Source of the DNA: Escherichia coli
GTDB taxonomy: Bacteria > Pseudomonadota > Gammaproteobacteria > Enterobacterales > Enterobacteriaceae
Direction: 5' to 3' (one strand)
DNA length: 64,000 nucleotides
Assembly: GCF_044324875.1 (NCBI RefSeq)
Contig: NZ_CP172185.1
A program made the position numbers and the translations under genes. Of the stretch, positions 34,210 to 42,678 are shown one piece after another (within the stretch, counting starts at the first letter, position 1; each line of letters begins with the position of its first letter). The notes under the pieces are model-generated. The model was not told the origin of the DNA, ran no database searches, and saw nothing but the letters and a program-made list of their open reading frames with translations.

Positions 34210-35130
34210 ATGAGCACCTTAGGTCATCAATACGATAACTCACTGGTTTCCAACGCCTTTGGTTTTTTACGCCTGCCGATGAACTTCCAGCCATATGACA
34301 GCGATGCTGACTGGGTGATTACTGGCGTGCCGTTCGATATGGCCACTTCTGGTCGTGCGGGGGGACGCCACGGTCCGGCAGCGATCCGTCAGGTTTCGAC
34401 GAATCTGGCCTGGGAACACAATCGCTTCCCGTGGAATTTCGACATGCGTGAACGCCTGAACGTCGTGGACTGCGGCGATCTGGTATATGCCTTCGGAGAT
34501 GCCCGTGAGATGAGCGAGAAGCTGCAGGCGCACGCCGAGAAGCTGCTGGCTGCCGGTAAGCGTATGCTCTCTTTCGGTGGTGACCACTTTGTTACGCTGC
34601 CGCTGCTGCGTGCTCATGCTAAGCATTTCGGCAAAATGGCGCTGGTACACTTTGACGCCCACACCGATACCTACGCGAACGGTTGTGAATTTGACCACGG
34701 CACCATGTTCTATACCGCGCCGAAAGAAGGTCTGATCGACCCGAATCATTCCGTGCAGATTGGTATTCGTACTGAGTTCGATAAAGACAACGGCTTTACC
34801 GTTCTGGACGCCTGCCAGGTGAACGATCGCAGCGTGGATGACGTTATCGCCCAGGTGAAACAGATTGTGGGTGATATGCCGGTTTACCTGACCTTTGATA
34901 TCGACTGCCTGGATCCTGCATTTGCGCCGGGAACCGGTACGCCGGTGATTGGCGGCCTGACCTCCGATCGCGCTATTAAACTGGTACGCGGCCTGAAAGA
35001 TCTCAACATCGTTGGGATGGACGTAGTGGAAGTGGCTCCGGCATACGATCAGTCGGAAATCACCGCTCTGGCTGCGGCGACGCTGGCGCTGGAGATGCTG
35101 TATATTCAGGCAGCGAAAAAGGGCGAGTAA
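34210..35130 (+). CDS. speB: Agmatinase
   Basis: Full-length match to SpeB (306 aa). Confidence 0.97.
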
Positions 35131-35167
35131 GCGCCGGATAAGATGCGTTATGCGTCAAATCCGGCGT
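35131..35167. repeat. REP-like palindrome between convergent speB and loiP
   Basis: GCGCCGGAT...ATCCGGCG stem. Confidence 0.4.
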
Positions 35168-35177
35168 AATAAAATGC

Positions 35178-35936
35178 TTACTTAACTCCATCCGCGCTCA
35201 TACGATCGCGAATATGCTGGGCGCGTTCGGCGGATGCTGGATGGTCGTCAAACATTGAGCTTTGACGGCCTTCTTCCAGCTTCGCCAGTTTTTCAAAGCT
35301 GGTGGCAAGACCTGCCGGGCTGATGCCGCGTTGGCGCAGAAGATCGTAAGAATAATCATCGGCTTCTGCTTCCTGGCGCTGGGAGAATTGCGAATTAACT
35401 AATTTCTCGCCCAGATCACCGAGTTGTGATTGAGATAAACTGCCGACAATCCCGCCCGCAGAGGCTGCAGCTACTCGCACGGCATTTGTACCAAGTGCCA
35501 CCTGCATCCCTTTCTTCACATGGCCTAACGCCACGTGCCCCATCTCGTGACCGATCACCGCTTCGACTTCGTTATCCGTCATCATATCCATCAGCCCGCT
35601 ATAGACGCGGATACAGCCGTTAGCCATTGCAAAGGCGTTCACATCCTTCGCCATATACACTTTGTAATTCACCGGCTGACCGTTGATATTGTTGCCTAGC
35701 GCATTGGCAATAGTTGTCAGACGTTTAGCGTATTCGCTATTGGCTGGCGCAATCGTCGCCTTGCTATCCATCTCCTGACATGCCTGATCGCTCAGGGTTT
35801 TCACCTGCGCATCACTCAAACTGTAAGCCTGAAAAGCTTCCGCTCCTGATGAGAGCAGTCCGTTGGAGTCCATATTCTGGCAACCGGTCAGTACCGTTGC
35901 CACGCTCATTGCTACCAATAAGGCGCGAATTTTCAT
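35178..35936 (-). CDS. loiP: Outer-membrane metalloprotease LoiP (YggG), M48 family
   Basis: Lipoprotein signal (MKIRALLVAMSVATVLTGC) and HEMGH zinc motif. Confidence 0.9.
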   Translation of the reverse strand: MKIRALLVAMSVATVLTGCQNMDSNGLLSSGAEAFQAYSLSDAQVKTLSDQACQEMDSKATIAPANSEYAKRLTTIANALGNNINGQPVNYKVYMAKDVNAFAMANGCIRVYSGLMDMMTDNEVEAVIGHEMGHVALGHVKKGMQVALGTNAVRVAAASAGGIVGSLSQSQLGDLGEKLVNSQFSQRQEAEADDYSYDLLRQRGISPAGLATSFEKLAKLEEGRQSSMFDDHPASAERAQHIRDRMSADGVK

Positions 35937-36213
35937 GTTTTCTCTTCCGCACAAGGTCAGGATTATTCTAAAAATGCGCCGTTTGCAGGTGAATCGACGC
36001 TCAGTCTCAGTATAAGGAAAAGCGCAGCGGACGGGCGAGCAGATTGCGCAACATGCGAGCATGATCCAGAGATTTCTGAAGCGGCAAAAGGATGTTCCAT
36101 GTACATGACGCGCGGCTTGCGGTAAATTGTTGGCAAATTTTCCGGCGTAGCCCAAAACGCGCTGTCGTCAAGTCGTTAAGGGCGTGCCCTTCATCATCCG
36201 ATCTGGAGTCAAA

Positions 36214-38205
36214 ATGTCCTCACGTAAAGAGCTTGCCAATGCTATTCGTGCGCTGAGCATGGACGCAGTACAGAAAGCCAAATCCGGTCACCCGGGTGCC
36301 CCTATGGGTATGGCTGACATTGCCGAAGTCCTGTGGCGTGATTTCCTGAAACACAACCCGCAGAATCCGTCCTGGGCTGACCGTGACCGCTTCGTGCTGT
36401 CCAACGGCCACGGCTCCATGCTGATCTACAGCCTGCTGCACCTCACCGGTTACGATCTGCCGATGGAAGAACTGAAAAACTTCCGTCAGCTGCACTCTAA
36501 AACTCCGGGTCACCCGGAAGTGGGTTACACCGCTGGTGTGGAAACCACCACTGGTCCGCTGGGTCAGGGTATTGCCAACGCAGTCGGTATGGCGATTGCA
36601 GAAAAAACGCTGGCGGCGCAGTTTAACCGTCCGGGCCACGACATTGTCGACCACTACACCTACGCCTTCATGGGTGACGGCTGCATGATGGAAGGCATCT
36701 CCCACGAAGTTTGCTCTCTGGCGGGTACGCTGAAGCTGGGTAAACTGATTGCGTTCTACGATGACAACGGTATCTCTATCGATGGTCACGTTGAAGGCTG
36801 GTTCACCGACGACACCGCAATGCGTTTCGAAGCTTACGGCTGGCACGTTATTCGCGGCATCGACGGTCATGACGCGGCATCCATCAAACGCGCAGTAGAA
36901 GAAGCGCGCGCAGTGACTGACAAACCGTCCCTGCTGATGTGCAAAACCATCATCGGTTTCGGTTCACCGAACAAAGCCGGTACGCACGACTCCCACGGTG
37001 CGCCGCTGGGCGACGCTGAAATCGCCCTGACCCGCGAACAGCTGGGCTGGAAATATGCACCGTTCGAAATCCCGTCTGAAATCTATGCTCAGTGGGATGC
37101 GAAAGAAGCAGGCCAGGCGAAAGAATCCGCATGGAACGAGAAATTCGCTGCTTACGCGAAAGCTTATCCGCAGGAAGCCGCTGAATTTACCCGCCGTATG
37201 AAAGGCGAAATGCCGTCTGACTTCGACGCCAAAGCGAAAGAGTTCATCGCTAAACTGCAGGCTAATCCAGCGAAAATCGCCAGCCGTAAAGCGTCTCAGA
37301 ATGCGATTGAAGCGTTCGGTCCGCTGTTGCCGGAATTCCTCGGCGGCTCTGCTGACCTGGCACCGTCTAACCTGACCCTGTGGTCTGGTTCTAAAGCAAT
37401 CAACGAAGATGCTGCGGGTAACTACATCCACTACGGTGTTCGCGAGTTCGGTATGACCGCGATTGCCAACGGTATCTCCCTGCACGGTGGTTTCCTGCCG
37501 TACACCTCTACCTTCCTGATGTTCGTGGAATACGCACGTAACGCCGTACGTATGGCTGCGTTGATGAAACAGCGTCAGGTTATGGTTTACACCCATGACT
37601 CCATCGGTCTGGGCGAAGATGGCCCGACTCACCAGCCGGTAGAGCAGGTTGCTTCTCTGCGCGTGACCCCGAACATGTCTACATGGCGTCCATGTGACCA
37701 GGTTGAATCTGCAGTGGCATGGAAATACGGTGTTGAGCGTCAGGACGGCCCGACCGCGCTGATCCTCTCCCGTCAGAACCTGGCGCAGCAGGAGCGTACT
37801 GAAGAGCAGCTGGCAAACATCGCGCGCGGTGGTTATGTGCTGAAAGACTGCGCCGGTCAGCCAGAACTGATTTTCATCGCGACCGGTTCGGAAGTTGAAC
37901 TGGCGGTTGCTGCCTACGAAAAACTGACTGCTGAAGGCGTGAAAGCGCGCGTGGTTTCCATGCCGTCTACCGACGCATTCGACAAGCAGGACGCGGCTTA
38001 CCGTGAATCCGTACTGCCGAAAGCGGTTACCGCTCGTGTTGCGGTAGAAGCGGGTATTGCTGACTACTGGTACAAGTATGTTGGCCTGAACGGCGCTATC
38101 GTCGGCATGACCACCTTCGGTGAATCTGCTCCGGCAGAGCAACTGTTTGAAGAGTTCGGCTTCACCGTTGACAACGTTGTTGCGAAAGCAAAAGAACTGC
38201 TGTAA
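36214..38205 (+). CDS. tktA: Transketolase 1
   Basis: Translation from [17 protein letters not shown] matches TktA (663 aa). Confidence 0.97.
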
Positions 38206-38214
38206 TCGGTAAGA

Positions 38215-38243
38215 TGCAGGGCCGCGAAAGCGGCCCTTTTTTT
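38215..38243. terminator. Intrinsic terminator after tktA
   Basis: GGGCCGC gaaa GCGGCCC hairpin followed by TTTTTTT. Confidence 0.6.
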
Positions 38244-39150
38244 ACTTAGTAGAGATAAACGGAACTGTACTGCCGGGGATCATGGTATCGGGCAGCTTAC
38301 CGTCCCAACGCTCTGCAGTGGTTAGGGCAACAAGTCCGGGATTATCCCGCAGAGCTTCACCGCGCAGGCGGATAGCTTCTGCTTCAGCCGCACTTTTTAA
38401 ACGAATAGTTTCAGCCTCTGCCGCGCCTCTTACGCGAATAGTCTCAGCTTCTGCTTTGGCTGCCGCCAGTTTACTGTCTGCTTCTGCCTGGGCCTGAGTT
38501 ACCGCTATTTGCGCCTGGATTTTCTCTGTTTCCAGATTTTGCTTACGTGTGGCAATGGCGACTTCTGCTTTCATTCGGTCTTCAATCGACTTTTCATAAG
38601 CGTCAGAAAAATCAATATTTTCAATCTGAACACCATCAATCACCACCGGGCCAACGACGGCTTTACGCATTGCATTTTGCAGATCCTGAACGAGTTTTGT
38701 ACGATCCTGTACGGCGCTGATGGCGGTATATTGGCCGAAAACGTTCTCCAGTTGAGTTGGCAACTGACGGACAATCAGACGATCTTTTAATGCTTCAATG
38801 GTGTTGTAGGTGGTATAAACCGCGCCTGCTTCTGAAGGTTTAATGTGGAAGCTGACTGATACTGTCATTTGTGCCGGTTGCTGGTCGCGGCTGTAGGCCT
38901 GTAATCCCTGATAAACCACAGCCTGATTACGCGTGGAAATTTTCTCCACGCTTTCCATAAAAGGGATCTTAAAACCCAGCCCCGGCTCGGCAACTTTCAC
39001 GATTTTTCCGTAGCGCAGCAAAATGCCGCGTTCACCTTCATTAACGGTGTAATACGAGAGAAATGGCAGCACAACCACGGCAAGCACGCCAATGACGATA
39101 GCAATAGATTTTTGTGGGCGAAATGAGGTTATTGAAACAGGTGCTTTCAT
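38242..39150 (-). CDS. SPFH/band-7 (prohibitin/stomatin-like) membrane protein, about 302 aa
   Basis: N-terminal TM helix, SPFH core, C-terminal Ala/Glu-rich coiled coil (AEAETIRVRGAAEAETIRLKSAAEAEAIRLRGE); start at 39150 has an AAGGAAG RBS. Not in the K-12 gene order I recall. Confidence 0.75.
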   Translation of the reverse strand: MKAPVSITSFRPQKSIAIVIGVLAVVVLPFLSYYTVNEGERGILLRYGKIVKVAEPGLGFKIPFMESVEKISTRNQAVVYQGLQAYSRDQQPAQMTVSVSFHIKPSEAGAVYTTYNTIEALKDRLIVRQLPTQLENVFGQYTAISAVQDRTKLVQDLQNAMRKAVVGPVVIDGVQIENIDFSDAYEKSIEDRMKAEVAIATRKQNLETEKIQAQIAVTQAQAEADSKLAAAKAEAETIRVRGAAEAETIRLKSAAEAEAIRLRGEALRDNPGLVALTTAERWDGKLPDTMIPGSTVPFISTK

Positions 39151-39526
39151 ATGAATCTTCCTTGAGTAAAGTGGGGAATATGTCACATGAGGTGAGGAGA
39201 AAATAGCCGACAGGTGAGAATTCAGAATCTATAAAGGGGTATAGCGAAAAAACATTGCATTAAAAAAGTATGTTTTCGGACATTCAATAAATAAATGGCG
39301 ATATGCAGCACAAATACAACAACAATCAAAATGTTGATTTTGTGATAAACATAGCAAATACAAAGTTGACTTTAAAAATATCAATTTCATGTTGTTGTTA
39401 TTTAAAGTTTTATTATTTTTACTCATGGGGTTTTTCTTCTCGCGTACCCAATTGCTTTCATTAAACCGCACGAGTATTTTATTTTTACCGCCGGACGGTA
39501 CCCTAAAAATAAAATAAGGATAATTT

Positions 39527-39970
39527 ATGCGGTTTATTGATTATTTTCCAGAATCATCAATCTCAGTTATACATTCAGCAAAAGATTGGCAGGAAGCTAT
39601 CGATTTCTCGATGGCATCATTGCTGGATAAAAACTATATCAACGAGAATTACATTCAGGCAATTAAAGATTCCACCATTAACAATGGCCCTTATTATATT
39701 CTCGCGTCAGGTGTGGCAATGCCTCATGCTCGACCGGAATGTGGGGCGCTTAAAACCGGGATGTCTTTAACGTTACTTAAACAAGGTGTTTATTTTCCGG
39801 GGAATGACGAACCGATAAAATTACTCATCGGCCTTTCTGCTGCCGATGCCGATTCGCACATTGGCGCTATTCAGGCGTTAAGTGAATTATTGTGTGAAGA
39901 AGAAATACTCAACCAATTATTAACAGCAGCATCAGAAAAACAATTAGCGGACATTATCAGCCGCGGATAA
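39527..39970 (+). CDS. cmtB: PTS mannitol-family EIIA (cryptic)
   Basis: 147-aa ORF with conserved His region (VAMPHAR); matches CmtB. Confidence 0.9.
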   Translation: MRFIDYFPESSISVIHSAKDWQEAIDFSMASLLDKNYINENYIQAIKDSTINNGPYYILASGVAMPHARPECGALKTGMSLTLLKQGVYFPGNDEPIKLLIGLSAADADSHIGAIQALSELLCEEEILNQLLTAASEKQLADIISRG

Positions 39971-39997
39971 TTACTCTCTCCTCTACAGGATAATATT

Positions 39998-41386
39998 ATG
40001 GAAAACAAGTCTGCTCGTGCAAAGGTCCAGGCTTTTGGGGGTTTTTTGACGGCAATGGTCATCCCCAATATCGGTGCTTTTATTGCCTGGGGCTTTATAA
40101 CTGCGTTATTTATTCCCACCGGTTGGCTGCCGAATGAACATTTCGCCAAAATTGTCGGCCCGATGATTACCTATTTATTGCCCGTGATGATTGGTTCTAC
40201 CGGTGGTCACCTGGTCGGCGGTAAACGCGGCGCGGTCATGGGCGGAATTGGTACGATTGGTGTGATCGTCGGCGCTGAAATCCCGATGTTCCTTGGCTCG
40301 ATGATTATGGGGCCGCTCGGTGGTCTGGTGATTAAATATATCGACAAGGCGCTGGAAAAACGCATACCTGCCGGTTTTGAGATGGTTATCAATAACTTCT
40401 CATTAGGTATCGCGGGGATGCTCCTTTGTCTGCTGGGTTTTGAAGTGATCGGCCCTGCGGTGTTAATTGCCAATACTTTCGTCAAAGAGTGTATTGAGGC
40501 GCTGGTACATGCGGGTTATCTGCCTTTGCTGTCAGTCATCAATGAACCGGCGAAAGTGCTTTTCCTTAATAATGCGATCGATCAGGGCGTCTATTATCCG
40601 CTGGGAATGCAACAGGCATCAGTTAACGGCAAATCCATCTTCTTTATGGTGGCATCCAATCCAGGGCCTGGCCTGGGGCTGCTGCTGGCGTTTACCTTGT
40701 TTGGTAAAGGGATGAGTAAGCGTTCTGCGCCTGGCGCGATGATTATTCACTTCCTCGGTGGGATCCACGAACTGTATTTCCCATATGTGCTGATGAAGCC
40801 ACTGACCATTATTGCCATGATTGCGGGCGGTATGTCTGGCACCTGGATGTTTAACTTACTTGATGGCGGTTTGGTGGCTGGCCCAAGCCCTGGCTCTATT
40901 TTTGCTTACCTGGCACTGACGCCGAAAGGCTCGTTCCTGGCGACAATTGCCGGTGTTACGGTAGGTACCCTGGTGTCCTTTGCTATCACTTCGCTGATAC
41001 TGAAGATGGAAAAAACGGTGGAAACGGAGAGCGAAGATGAGTTTGCTCAGTCAGCCAATGCGGTTAAGGCGATGAAACAAGAGGGTGCATTCTCGTTAAG
41101 CAGGGTTAAGCGTATCGCCTTTGTTTGCGATGCGGGGATGGGCTCCAGCGCGATGGGCGCAACCACCTTCCGTAAACGTCTGGAAAAAGCGGGGCTGGCA
41201 ATTGAAGTAAAACATTACGCGATAGAAAACGTGCCTGCGGATGCGGATATCGTTGTTACTCATGCCAGTCTGGAAGGGCGCGTGAAACGTGTGACGGATA
41301 AACCGCTGATACTGATTAATAACTATATTGGCGATCCAAAACTCGACACTTTATTTAATCAATTAACCGCCGAACATAAAAACTGA
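39998..41386 (+). CDS. cmtA: PTS mannitol-family EIICB (cryptic)
   Basis: 462-aa polytopic ORF with C-terminal EIIB Cys region (FVCDAGMGSS). Confidence 0.9.
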   Translation: MENKSARAKVQAFGGFLTAMVIPNIGAFIAWGFITALFIPTGWLPNEHFAKIVGPMITYLLPVMIGSTGGHLVGGKRGAVMGGIGTIGVIVGAEIPMFLGSMIMGPLGGLVIKYIDKALEKRIPAGFEMVINNFSLGIAGMLLCLLGFEVIGPAVLIANTFVKECIEALVHAGYLPLLSVINEPAKVLFLNNAIDQGVYYPLGMQQASVNGKSIFFMVASNPGPGLGLLLAFTLFGKGMSKRSAPGAMIIHFLGGIHELYFPYVLMKPLTIIAMIAGGMSGTWMFNLLDGGLVAGPSPGSIFAYLALTPKGSFLATIAGVTVGTLVSFAITSLILKMEKTVETESEDEFAQSANAVKAMKQEGAFSLSRVKRIAFVCDAGMGSSAMGATTFRKRLEKAGLAIEVKHYAIENVPADADIVVTHASLEGRVKRVTDKPLILINNYIGDPKLDTLFNQLTAEHKN

Positions 41387-41400
41387 TTGCCGAGGTAAAA

Positions 41401-42678
41401 ATGAAAACCAAAGTTGCTGCTATTTATGGCAAGCGGGATGTCCGTCTGCGCGAATTTGAACTGCCAGAAATTACCGATAATGAACTGTTAGTGAGTGTAA
41501 TTTCTGACAGCGTCTGTTTATCGACCTGGAAAGCGGCGTTACTCGGTAGTGAACATAAACGCGTACCCGACGATTTAGAAAATCATCCGGTCATTACCGG
41601 GCATGAATGTGCCGGGGTTATTGTTGAAGTGGGTAAAAATCTCACCGGCAAATATAAAAAAGGCCAGCGTTTTGTATTGCAACCGGCGATGGGGTTACCA
41701 AGCGGATATTCAGCGGGCTACAGCTACGAATATTTTGGCGGTAACGCCACCTATATGATTATTCCCGAGATCGCCATTAACCTGGGCTGCGTATTACCGT
41801 ACCACGGCTCTTATTTTGCTGCGGCGTCGCTGGCAGAGCCTATGTGCTGCATTATTGGCGCTTATCATGCCAATTATCACACCACGCAATATGTTTATGA
41901 GCATCGCATGGGCGTTAAACCTGGCGGCAATATTGCGCTGCTGGCGTGTGCAGGTCCGATGGGCATTGGCGCTATCGATTATGCTATTAACGGCGGCATA
42001 CAACCGTCGCGGGTGGTGGTGGTCGATATCGACGACAAACGCCTGGCGCAGGTACAAAAGCTGCTGCCGGTGGAACTGGCGGCCAGTAAAGGCATTGAGC
42101 TGGTGTATGTGAATACCAAAGGGATGAGCGATCCGGTCCAGACGCTGCGGGCGCTGACGGATGATGCCGGATTTGATGACGTATTTGTCTATGCAGCGGT
42201 GCCTTCAGTCGTCGAGATGGCTGATGAATTACTGGCGGAAGATGGCTGCCTGAACTTCTTTGCCGGGCCGACGGATAAAAACTTCAAAGTGCCGTTTAAT
42301 TTCTACAACGTCCATTACAACAGCACGCATGTCGTCGGTACGTCCGGCGGTTCAACGGACGACATGAAAGAGGCGATTGCGCTTAGCGCCACGGGGCAGT
42401 TACAGCCGTCGTTTATGGTGACCCATATCGGTGGCCTGGATGCAGTGCCAGAAACCGTGCTCAATCTGCCGGATATCCCCGGAGGTAAAAAACTCATTTA
42501 TAACGGCGTGACCATGCCGCTGACTGCCATTGCCGATTTTGCCGAAAAAGGCAAAACCGATCCGCTGTTTAAAGAACTGGCGCGGCTGGTTGAGGAAACG
42601 CACGGTATCTGGAATGAACAGGCCGAGAAATATCTGCTGGCGCAATTTGGCGTTGATATTGGGGAGGCCGCGCAATGA
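41401..42678 (+). CDS. yggP: Zinc-type polyol/sugar-phosphate dehydrogenase YggP
   Basis: 425-aa ORF matching YggP. Confidence 0.9.
   Translation: MKTKVAAIYGKRDVRLREFELPEITDNELLVSVISDSVCLSTWKAALLGSEHKRVPDDLENHPVITGHECAGVIVEVGKNLTGKYKKGQRFVLQPAMGLPSGYSAGYSYEYFGGNATYMIIPEIAINLGCVLPYHGSYFAAASLAEPMCCIIGAYHANYHTTQYVYEHRMGVKPGGNIALLACAGPMGIGAIDYAINGGIQPSRVVVVDIDDKRLAQVQKLLPVELAASKGIELVYVNTKGMSDPVQTLRALTDDAGFDDVFVYAAVPSVVEMADELLAEDGCLNFFAGPTDKNFKVPFNFYNVHYNSTHVVGTSGGSTDDMKEAIALSATGQLQPSFMVTHIGGLDAVPETVLNLPDIPGGKKLIYNGVTMPLTAIADFAEKGKTDPLFKELARLVEETHGIWNEQAEKYLLAQFGVDIGEAAQ

Follow-up and report, generated by a model that had tools for sequence, protein, structure and literature searches.

Introduction

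E. coli K-12 has been described as having four SPFH proteins. In the 64,000-nucleotide stretch of E. coli DNA analysed here (hereafter, the window), a further SPFH gene stands alone between tktA and cmtB. Its presence raises the question of whether it was added to this genome or lost from others, and of what its product may do. According to our preferred reading, to which we assign a probability of roughly 0.6, the gene encodes a fifth, lineage-variable E. coli SPFH paralogue that would form a periplasm-facing homo-oligomeric cage, and that was ancestral beside tktA and lost toward K-12. The gene already bears the RefSeq annotation 'prohibitin family protein' and belongs to a known superfamily; our literature searches found no paper on it.

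Annotation of the gene and its control region

The gene occupies positions 38242–39150 of the minus strand, with its stop codon at 38242–38244, and encodes a 302-residue SPFH/Band_7 protein, as indicated by the open reading frame, Pfam, the RefSeq CDS and dN/dS values. The ORF finder had called a longer frame starting with GTG (38242–39186, minus strand, 314 aa). The true start is the ATG at 39150, since an AAGGAAG ribosome-binding site (39157–39163) lies 6 nt upstream, orthologues keep the same start, and the 99.9% identical copy of O158:H23 has a 909-bp CDS in RefSeq. The frame was confirmed as a real gene rather than a chance ORF by its more than 3900 homologues at E ≤ 1e-10 and by dN/dS values of 0.01–0.06 against orthologues. 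Its GC3 was 44.9%, versus 54–63% in the neighbouring genes.

The gene is monocistronic; tktA, which ends at 38205, is convergent with it, and cmtB, which starts at 39527, is divergent. A terminator scan identified, at 38218–38237, a GC-rich hairpin with T-runs, which read as A-runs on the opposite strand. This hairpin is invariant in the orthologous loci of Escherichia and serves as a bidirectional terminator common to tktA and the SPFH gene. On the opposite side, positions 39151–39526 form an AT-rich divergent control region (31.9% GC) between the SPFH gene and cmtB. The locus thus has the layout given by an earlier, sequence-only reading of this DNA, namely an opposite-strand gene between the tktA terminator and an AT-rich stretch before cmtB. 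Within the control region, which also contains the ribosome-binding site, a cross-genus alignment revealed a conserved upstream block, TTTATAGATTCTGAATTCTCA (39215–39235), and, as read by eye, a candidate extended −10 element, TGACATATT (39177–39185). We infer the promoter from this candidate, and the assignment is putative because a promoter scan of the locus did not find a full sigma-70 consensus. An Rfam search of the spacers around the gene returned no structured RNA at E ≤ 1.

Architecture and predicted topology of the protein

Pfam Band_7 (PF01145) matched residues 47–222 of the 314-residue ORF translation (E = 6.3e-32; 111.5 bits for a cut-off of 23.6). From the N- to the C-terminus, the 302-residue protein, encoded throughout on the minus strand, was characterized by an N-terminal membrane-anchor helix (residues 14–32; 39055–39111), modelled as a helix by AF2 and preceded by K2, R11 and K14; an SPFH (Band 7) alpha/beta domain (residues 33–181; 38608–39054), delimited from Pfam, Foldseek and an AF2 pLDDT of about 90; a single long Ala/Glu-rich helix (residues 183–269; 38344–38604), with 22 Ala and 13 Glu in its 87 residues; and a conserved C-terminal tail, ALRDNPGLVALTTAERWDGKLPDTMIPGSTVPFISTK (residues 266–302; 38245–38355). 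The protein had first been described, from the letters of the DNA, as an SPFH membrane protein with an Ala/Glu-rich C-terminal coiled coil, and this description was upheld. The AF2 monomer model as a whole (pLDDT 83) showed the membrane helix, the SPFH domain and the single long helix, followed by a disordered tail; the low pLDDT of the tail in a monomer is compatible with folding on assembly and is no proof of it.

The long helix contains three tandem 11-residue (33-bp) repeats, AEAETIRVRGA, AEAETIRLKSA and AEAEAIRLRGE (38356–38454, minus strand), which were visible in the protein alignment and, at 33-nt spacing, in a DNA repeat search, and were not reported by TRF. The Escherichia protein carries one such unit above the family norm. 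Indeed, the anchor-to-anchor spacing of the coil was 83 in 124 homologues, 94 in 16, 72 in 6 and 105 in 2, and in 148 of 155 homologues the length of the helix changed in steps of 11 residues, as would be expected if a packed cage wall requires the helix register to be kept.

Family alignment of the tail showed that N270, L276, A279, W282, G284, L286, P287, P292 and P297 are invariant, and phrog_38808 matched residues 245–302 (E = 1.7e-19). The tail was also the best-conserved part of the protein in the homologues of P1-like, Stx2a and Pseudomonas phages, and is a family-specific signature.

Foldseek matched the model to known cage protomers with a probability of 1.00, namely HflC (E = 6.8e-18), PHB2 (6.2e-16), QmcA (5.8e-12), and also PHB1, erlin, HflK, stomatin and flotillin. 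Searched against the PDB, the family profile aligned over its full length with HflC (9e-20), HflK (9e-13) and the prohibitins (1e-11 to 2e-7).

Charge bias at the anchor and lipobox variants predict that the SPFH domain faces the periplasm. Among 165 homologues, the N side of the anchor had a net charge of +1.7 versus −0.35 on the C side, with the N side exceeding the C side in 148; a lipobox-like Cys was present at the end of the anchor in six. A periplasmic orientation has likewise been predicted for SPFH3 and SPFH4 (PMC2636767). The product would therefore be a bitopic inner-membrane protein with a cytoplasmic N-terminus and one membrane helix, exposing its SPFH domain, the approximately 87-residue helix and the tail to the periplasm. 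The solved assemblies of HflK/C, prohibitin, erlin, stomatin, QmcA and flotillin suggest, by analogy, that it would most likely form a closed homo-oligomeric cage covering a patch of the inner membrane, with the long helices as its wall and the C-terminal tails as its cap. Such a cage might serve, on the periplasmic side, to sequester membrane proteins or to scaffold them, with FtsH as the default candidate client, as for HflKC and mitochondrial prohibitin.

The phenotypes of bacterial SPFH mutants are often weak. In P. aeruginosa, the deletion of nine SPFH genes had little effect (PMC13086221).

Relation to known SPFH proteins and the question of partners

Compared with the K-12 SPFH proteins, the sequence gave E-values of 1.8e-13 for HflC, 8e-11 for HflK and 7.8e-7 for QmcA; YqiK was similar in the coiled coil only (E = 0.012). 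The NCBIfam equivalog cut-offs were missed by a wide margin, with scores of 60.2 versus 134.4 for TIGR01932 (hflC), 53.1 versus 427 for NF008259 and 37.2 versus 159.4 for TIGR01933 (hflK). Judged by these comparisons, the protein is distinct from HflK, HflC, QmcA and YqiK, as had been suspected from the outset.

It also seems to fit neither the HflK/C nor the prohibitin subfamily cleanly. Despite the RefSeq name, HflC outscored PHB by phmmer, by profile and by Foldseek, and was the best solved-structure match by both sequence and fold. The protein shares with HflK and HflC the succession of a single N-terminal membrane helix, SPFH domain, long helix and C-terminal tail, as well as the predicted periplasmic orientation and the lack of an NfeD partner. 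However, it is only about 24% identical to HflC, its tail and coil length are unlike those of HflK/C, and it is encoded by a single gene rather than an hflK-hflC pair, outside the hfq-hflX-hflK-hflC operon. With the prohibitins (PHB1/PHB2, SPFH4), it has in common the RefSeq name, a size of about 270–300 aa, a full-length profile alignment (1.4e-11 to 2e-7) and a Foldseek match (6e-16), together with the SPFH4 traits of having no NfeD identified and a predicted orientation away from the cytoplasm. Eukaryotic prohibitins nevertheless showed weaker similarity than HflC, and PHB1/2 form a heteromer, whereas we presume a homo-oligomer here. Moreover, in E. coli the protein exists alongside HflKC, whereas members of SPFH4 are seldom found together with SPFH3 (Hinderhofer et al. 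2009, PMC2636767). QmcA-YbbJ and YqiK-YqiJ belong to the same superfamily of membrane-anchored cage protomers, but face the cytoplasm and have a co-transcribed NfeD gene, in contrast to the opposite orientation predicted for the tktA-linked protein and to a gene flanked only by tktA and cmtB.

Neighbour clustering over 65 loci of the family revealed neither an NfeD gene beside the SPFH gene nor any neighbour conserved across genera; the recurrent neighbours of homologues were DUF4442, nucleotidyltransferase, BA14K, DUF418, DUF1684 and alpha/beta hydrolase genes, and the neighbours checked on mobile elements had no NfeD domain. The yqiJ-yqiK pair, by contrast, is present in K-12. The gene was thus rightly described as lacking an adjacent NfeD partner, but not as an exception on that account. 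NfeD pairing is limited to SPFH1, SPFH2 and SPFH5, and no NfeD homologue has been identified for HflK/C (SPFH3) or the bacterial prohibitins (SPFH4) (PMC2636767); a solitary gene is therefore no anomaly.

The gene order could still mislead if the protein worked with partners encoded elsewhere, either in mixed cages with HflK/HflC or with an NfeD protein in trans (YbbJ or YqiJ), 'stand-alone' then describing the gene order only. HflC is the closest solved relative, especially in the membrane helix and the first half of the SPFH domain, and shares with HflK the orientation predicted here; SPFH cages are often hetero-oligomers (HflK/C, PHB1/2, erlin1/2 and flotillin1/2, all among the Foldseek matches); and Hinderhofer et al. 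leave room for NfeD partners from another operon (PMC2636767). We nevertheless consider such partnerships improbable, given the 24% identity to HflC, the differences in coil length and in the family-specific tail, and the occurrence of the family in phages and plasmids as a single gene without adjacent hflKC or nfeD. Moreover, YbbJ/QmcA and YqiJ/YqiK are placed on the cytoplasmic side by published work, opposite to the orientation predicted for this protein.

Distribution among E. coli genomes

A survey of 5426 complete E. coli genomes placed the gene at the tktA-cmtB locus in 1830, the carriers including ST131 and the probiotic Nissle 1917, both B2; 3595 genomes, including K-12 and O157:H7, have an unrelated-looking 234 bp in its place. 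The variable segment of the window measures 1242 bp (38207–39448): homology to K-12 breaks off at 38206 and is regained from 39449 onward. In a K-12-lineage genome, cmtB comes immediately after tkt, in agreement with the sequence-only reading, which expected no gene here in K-12. That reading had also asked whether a conserved core gene with a known annotation occupies this position. The position is indeed conserved and the gene annotated in RefSeq, but it is accessory rather than core in E. coli and its name is generic. Its distribution in the Enterobacteriaceae is patchy.

A simple deletion in K-12 was ruled out, as the 234 bp of the K-12 spacer differ in sequence and contain a terminator of their own. 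This spacer aligned with the upstream spacer of the SPFH gene with a score of 56, versus 26.7 ± 4.5 in shuffles, and part of it is a strongly diverged homologue of that upstream spacer.

Two further groups of variants were considered. The existence of highly divergent E. coli alleles was rejected: the 92.6% copy (L017) lies in a 13-kb locus that is 92–95% identical to the window over its whole length, and thus represents a distant lineage rather than a special allele. Clusters of 245-aa and 266-aa 'partial' proteins did not consist of pseudogenes, as the loci checked for the 245-aa cluster (3 out of 3) stop at contig ends.

Absence from 3595 genomes, the adjoining cryptic cmt operon, the lack of a consensus sigma-70 promoter in the scan and the existence of a frameshifted variant (P0015, 7 members) might suggest a decaying or silent remnant without function. 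This explanation is strongly disfavoured and we give it hardly any weight. Indeed, at the DNA level, coverage of the gene reached 80% or more in 1818 of the 1830 copies, the 245-aa partial cluster is a contig-end artefact, and the ribosome-binding site, the start codon and the upstream blocks are conserved across genera in the alignment. Moreover, dN/dS was 0.009–0.028 within Escherichia and 0.063 against Pseudocitrobacter, and the gene is under strong purifying selection.

Ancestry and relatives on mobile elements

Beside tktA, the SPFH gene was also found in E. albertii (96% aa identity), E. whittamii and the cryptic clades (99%), Kluyvera (82%) and Pseudocitrobacter (85%). The Klebsiella copy (88%) adjoins epd-pgk-fbaA-mscS on a contig that ends before tktA; in Kluyvera, the epd-pgk-fbaA block adjoins the SPFH gene. 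Amino-acid identity drops with host relatedness, from 96–99% within Escherichia to 82–88% in other genera. A genomic island was sought and rejected, as the locus has no tRNA, no integrase or mobility genes and no bounding direct repeats. Since it is linked to tktA in several genera under strong purifying selection, the gene is ancestral at this position in Escherichia and related genera, was vertically inherited, and was lost on the lineage that gave rise to K-12 and to some two thirds of sequenced E. coli. The gene is therefore neither a new insertion nor an addition to the source genome.

Homologues also occur on mobile elements, including F-type tra operons. Full-length homologues (40–53% aa identity) were found in the jumbo phages GAP32, CBB and fHe-Yen9-04, in Rhizobium phages and in phage Skarpretter, and residues 14–243 matched phrog_200, a family of phage SPFH proteins labelled 'lipoprotein' (E = 4e-63). 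Plasmids of Enterobacter and Kosakonia encode homologues with 72–74% identity, and pCAR1 and other Pseudomonas plasmids encode homologues with 58%. On the conjugative Enterobacter plasmid pMB9539_2 (IncFII/IncR), traB and traV flank the homologue within the tra operon, and in K. oxytoca a copy is found with TraF, HNH, ArdC and CbtA genes around it, in an ICE-like island. The early or accessory regions of P1-like phage, a Stx2a prophage and Bruynoghevirus encode Band_7 proteins that share this C-terminal tail. The phrog_200 and plasmid 'prohibitin family' proteins share the architecture and the C-terminal signature RGEALRxNP...WxGxLP...VPF, the closer ones being 40–74% identical, but their genes are carried by mobile elements, tra operons or the early or accessory regions of phages, whereas the window gene is chromosomal, tktA-linked and vertically inherited. 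PADLOC-DB v2 gave 0 defence-system families at E ≤ 1, and a defence-system identity was rejected.

Given close relatives of 58–74% aa identity on conjugative plasmids and in an ICE-like island, and more remote ones in phages, the chromosomal copy could have been acquired long ago and could serve a function linked to mobile elements. As mobile-element cargo fixed in the chromosome, it might scaffold or protect envelope-spanning transfer machinery, mediate superinfection or entry exclusion, or tune host FtsH so as to bias the lysis-lysogeny decision of phages. The presence/absence polymorphism at a locus adjoining an AT-rich tract would also agree with this origin. We regard it as unlikely, although worth keeping in mind, because the gene holds the same tktA position in several genera, its identity tracks host relatedness, mobility genes, tRNA and att-like repeats are absent from the locus, purifying selection has been very strong over a long divergence, and PADLOC gave no match.

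More speculatively, and with less conviction than for fixed cargo, the whole tail-bearing clade might form periplasm-facing cages with one purpose common to chromosomes and to mobile elements, from F-type tra operons and ICEs to P1-like and Stx prophages and jumbo phages. This purpose might be either guarding or scaffolding envelope-spanning machines or setting FtsH activity, thereby influencing conjugation, phage lysogeny or exclusion. In carriers, among them ST131 and Nissle 1917, the chromosomal copy could then partly back up HflKC and mask hflKC phenotypes defined in K-12.

Significance

The reach of these findings is limited, as the gene already has an annotation, is part of a known superfamily and, having been lost in two thirds of E. 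coli, is dispensable. However, the SPFH biology of E. coli was worked out in K-12, whereas roughly one in three complete genomes of the species codes for a fifth SPFH protein. Since this protein probably faces the periplasm like HflKC, the two may be partly redundant, and redundancy could affect how far hflKC phenotypes, such as aminoglycoside and oxidative-stress tolerance, respiration and FtsH substrates, carry over to clinical strains. Finally, the occurrence of the same type of protein in tra operons and phage early regions may offer a tractable entry to the roles of bacterial prohibitin-like SPFH proteins.

Gene structure and upstream region

tktA stops at 38205 and cmtB starts at 39527; in the interval, ORF finder detected a single long ORF on the minus strand. 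The program placed its start at a GTG (39186), but the true start is the ATG at 39150, which gives a protein of 302 aa (38242-39150). This ATG is preceded by AAGGAAG (39157-39163), and in a cross-genus alignment the orthologues of Escherichia, Kluyvera and Pseudocitrobacter begin at the same codon; for the copy in an O158:H23 strain, which is 99.9% identical, RefSeq gives a 909-bp CDS. The protein matched Pfam Band_7 (E=6.3e-32). An AlphaFold2 monomer model (32 homologues as input, mean pLDDT 83) comprised a membrane helix (residues 14-32), an SPFH alpha/beta domain (residues 33-181), one unbroken helix (residues 183-269), 40% of which is Ala and Glu, and a C-terminal tail of low confidence. 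These data bear out the sequence-only reading of an SPFH membrane protein with an Ala/Glu-rich coiled coil, encoded on the opposite strand between tktA and an AT-rich stretch before cmtB. The SPFH gene and tktA converge on a GC-rich hairpin identified by terminator scan (38218-38237), and on its upstream side cmtB is transcribed divergently, across a 376-bp spacer of 31.9% GC; the gene is thus monocistronic.

No consensus sigma-70 promoter for the SPFH gene was found in a promoter scan. In the cross-genus alignment, Escherichia, Kluyvera and Pseudocitrobacter had three conserved upstream blocks in common: TTTATAGATTCTGAATTCTCA (39215-39235); ATGTGACATATT, which holds a possible extended -10, TGACATATT (39177-39185); and the RBS (39157-39163). 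The AT-rich spacer, common to the SPFH gene and the cmt operon, suggests putative H-NS silencing; this operon is cryptic in K-12.

Between tktA and the SPFH gene, about 175 bp of REP/BIME-like palindromic units (compared locus L003, 6918-7137) were observed in E. albertii and in L017, a divergent genome labelled E. coli. Apparently the same units occur in other E. coli copies (H2-H5), which are about 170 bp longer than the 1.5-kb query. These units lie between two terminator hairpins of the sequence GGGCCGCGAAAGCGGCCC; the window (38206-38241) and the O158:H23 strain carry a single hairpin, without REP units.

Relation to known SPFH proteins

When compared with all PDB sequences, the protein matched HflC (1.8e-13), HflK (8e-11) and QmcA (7.8e-7), and more weakly prohibitins (4e-5 and 4.5e-4) and stomatin (1.6e-3). 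A family profile matched HflC over the first half only (9e-20), and prohibitins over the full length (1e-11 to 2e-7). YqiK shared only Ala/Glu coiled-coil similarity (E=0.012), and scores against the NCBIfam HflC and HflK equivalog models were far under the cut-off. Foldseek ranked HflC, PHB2, PHB1, erlin1/2, HflK, stomatin, QmcA and flotillin, all of them closed-cage protomers. On these scores, the protein differs from each of the four SPFH proteins of K-12 (HflK, HflC, QmcA and YqiK), as had been proposed from the sequence, and stands between the HflK/C and prohibitin types, falling cleanly into neither.

The sequence-only reading had also pointed out that SPFH proteins are usually paired with an NfeD partner and that this gene stands alone. 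Neighbour clustering of 65 loci from a scan of species-representative genomes showed neighbours to be conserved within genera only; the recurrent ones were DUF4442, nucleotidyltransferase, BA14K, DUF418, DUF1684 and alpha/beta hydrolase, with no NfeD among them. Nor was an NfeD domain found in the neighbours of plasmid and phage homologues. The gene is indeed alone, but this is the norm for its SPFH type: no NfeD homologue was identified for SPFH3 (HflK/C type), SPFH4 (bacterial prohibitins) or SPFH6-12 by Hinderhofer et al. (PMC2636767). The same study reported that SPFH4 seldom co-occurs with HflK/C, and its table has SPFH4 entries for E. coli E22 and several Shewanella. P. aeruginosa PA14 has nine SPFH genes, whose deletion mutants had little phenotype (PMC13086221). 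Work on E. coli SPFH proteins centres on K-12 and lists four of them; our literature searches found no paper on the tktA-linked gene. The gene is real, already generically annotated, uncharacterised and of a known kind.

Distribution in E. coli and the gene-less allele

The 1.5-kb region had matches in 5425 of 5426 complete E. coli genomes, with full coverage in only 1816; the remaining genomes matched the tktA and cmtB flanks only. The CDS alone matched 1830 genomes (coverage of at least 80% in 1818), including an O25b:H4-ST131 strain, Nissle 1917 and an O145 strain, and E. coli copies were always annotated "prohibitin family protein". In a K-12-lineage genome, tkt is followed directly by cmtB, with a spacer of 313 bp, in agreement with the sequence-only reading that no gene is known here in K-12. 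Homology between K-12 and the window stops exactly at the tktA stop and restarts at 39449, 1242 bp in the window corresponding to 234 bp in K-12. The K-12-type 234 bp were found in 3595 genomes, O157:H7 among them. As 1830 and 3595 add up to 5425, the locus has two essentially exclusive alleles in E. coli.

The 234 bp (compared locus L001, 3108-3341) contain a different tktA terminator of their own and an AT-rich stretch. About 165 bp are weakly colinear with the window spacer at 39253-39417 (score 56 versus 26.7 ± 4.5 in 300 shuffles), whereas the flanks are 96-97.5% identical to the window. Given this terminator and the residual alignment to the upstream spacer, the K-12 allele is an old form of this locus that lacks the gene and has diverged strongly. 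A clean deletion in K-12 was ruled out by the different terminator and the only weakly aligning AT-rich stretch.

Ancestry of the locus

The gene lies between cmtB and tktA in E. albertii (96% aa identity) and in E. whittamii and cryptic-clade Escherichia (99%). It adjoins tktA in Pseudocitrobacter (84-85%), and Kluyvera intermedia (82%) has the order tktA-SPFH-epd-pgk-fbaA-mscS, without the cmt operon. In a Klebsiella contig that stops short of tktA (88%), it adjoins epd-pgk-fbaA-mscS. Nei-Gojobori dN/dS was 0.009-0.028 within Escherichia (dS 0.27-0.68) and 0.063 against Pseudocitrobacter, and no tRNA, bounding repeats or mobility genes were found near the locus in the window. Based on the tktA synteny across taxa, the low dN/dS and the lack of mobility marks, the simplest reading is that the gene is ancestral, kept by selection and lost from K-12-type lineages; likewise, the cmt-ygg cluster would most simply have been inserted between the SPFH gene and epd in Escherichia. 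The feature is a K-12 loss, not a novel insertion. Its patchy distribution within Enterobacteriaceae makes it necessary to assume repeated loss or recombinational exchange.

The locus at 35100-42600 looks mosaic: identity to O158:H23 strain CFIAFB20140388 is 99.9% in the CDS but 97.7% across these 7.5 kb, and identity to K-12 is 95.9% on the cmt side and 97.5% over loiP-tktA. No other copy in a complete E. coli genome exceeds 98.2% identity to that of the window, and the source strain belongs to a lineage rare among complete genomes. A 100% identical protein is encoded by PLSDB record NZ_CP134663.1, a 4.9-Mb gull E. coli record in a plasmid collection that is evidently a chromosome.

Relatives on mobile elements

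The protein matched phrog_200 (4e-63), and full-length homologues (40-53% identity) were found in jumbo phages, Rhizobium phages and phage Skarpretter. Plasmid homologues (58-74% identity) were present in Pseudomonas (pCAR1 type, near an sppA-like gene in pCAR1), Enterobacter and Kosakonia. In pMB9539_2, a conjugative IncFII/IncR plasmid of Enterobacter hormaechei, a 73.6% identical homologue (locus L096, 3905-4789) lies within the F-type tra operon (traA-traL-traE-traK-traB-hyp-SPFH-hyp-traV-traC) and could serve the conjugation machinery as an accessory factor. A chromosomal K. oxytoca copy (72%) is located amid TraF, HNH, ArdC and CbtA genes. Moreover, Band_7 proteins of about 275 aa bearing the same tail are encoded between dam and ban in a P1-like phage (L091, 2371-3198), near xis and int in an Stx2a prophage (L092, 2371-3198) and in the early region of Bruynoghevirus Ab22 (L093, 1835-2659). 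Over the last 60-90 residues they share about 40-50% identity with the E. coli protein, but their SPFH domain has diverged past BLAST detection. These proteins are mis-annotated variously as 'lipoprotein' or 'serine protease'. With such relatives, a function tied to mobile elements remains the main rival explanation; they do not, however, override the tktA synteny of the chromosomal copy, for which ancestry with loss in K-12 is still the simplest reading.

Predicted topology and assembly

Among 165 homologues, net charge was +1.7 before the hydrophobic anchor versus -0.35 over the 15 residues that follow, and in 148 the N side was the more positive. In six homologues, a lipobox-like Cys ends the anchor (e.g., LSGC, VAGC), implying that the rest of these proteins would be exported. 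Together, these features predict an N-in topology with a periplasmic SPFH domain, as in HflK/C; for SPFH3 and SPFH4, a periplasmic orientation was predicted by Hinderhofer et al. (PMC2636767).

Coil length was measured in 155 homologues as the spacing between the invariant xIExRMxAE and WxGxLP motifs. It was 83 residues in 124 homologues, 94 in 16 (Escherichia among them), 72 in 6 and 105 in 2, and a rule of 83 ± 11n held in 148. The extra Escherichia unit is the middle of three 11-residue repeats (residues 233-265; 38356-38454); one E. albertii variant is short of two units. Steps of 11 residues would preserve helix register, which fits a cage wall built of laterally packed helices, with a height that would change in steps.

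One cluster comprises 759 'partial' proteins of 245 aa that break off at ...RGAAE, within the region of the 33-bp repeats. All three loci checked (L098-L100, draft assemblies) stop at a contig end, suggesting that short-read assemblies break in this region. A variant, P0015 (7 members), is frameshifted there.

Conservation in the family is highest over the last 37 residues, and BLAST alignments to the more distant phage homologues cover nothing else. In the monomer model these residues are disordered, as would suit a tail that forms a cap or contact upon assembly only. By analogy, the protein is predicted to form a cage, with FtsH as the default candidate client.
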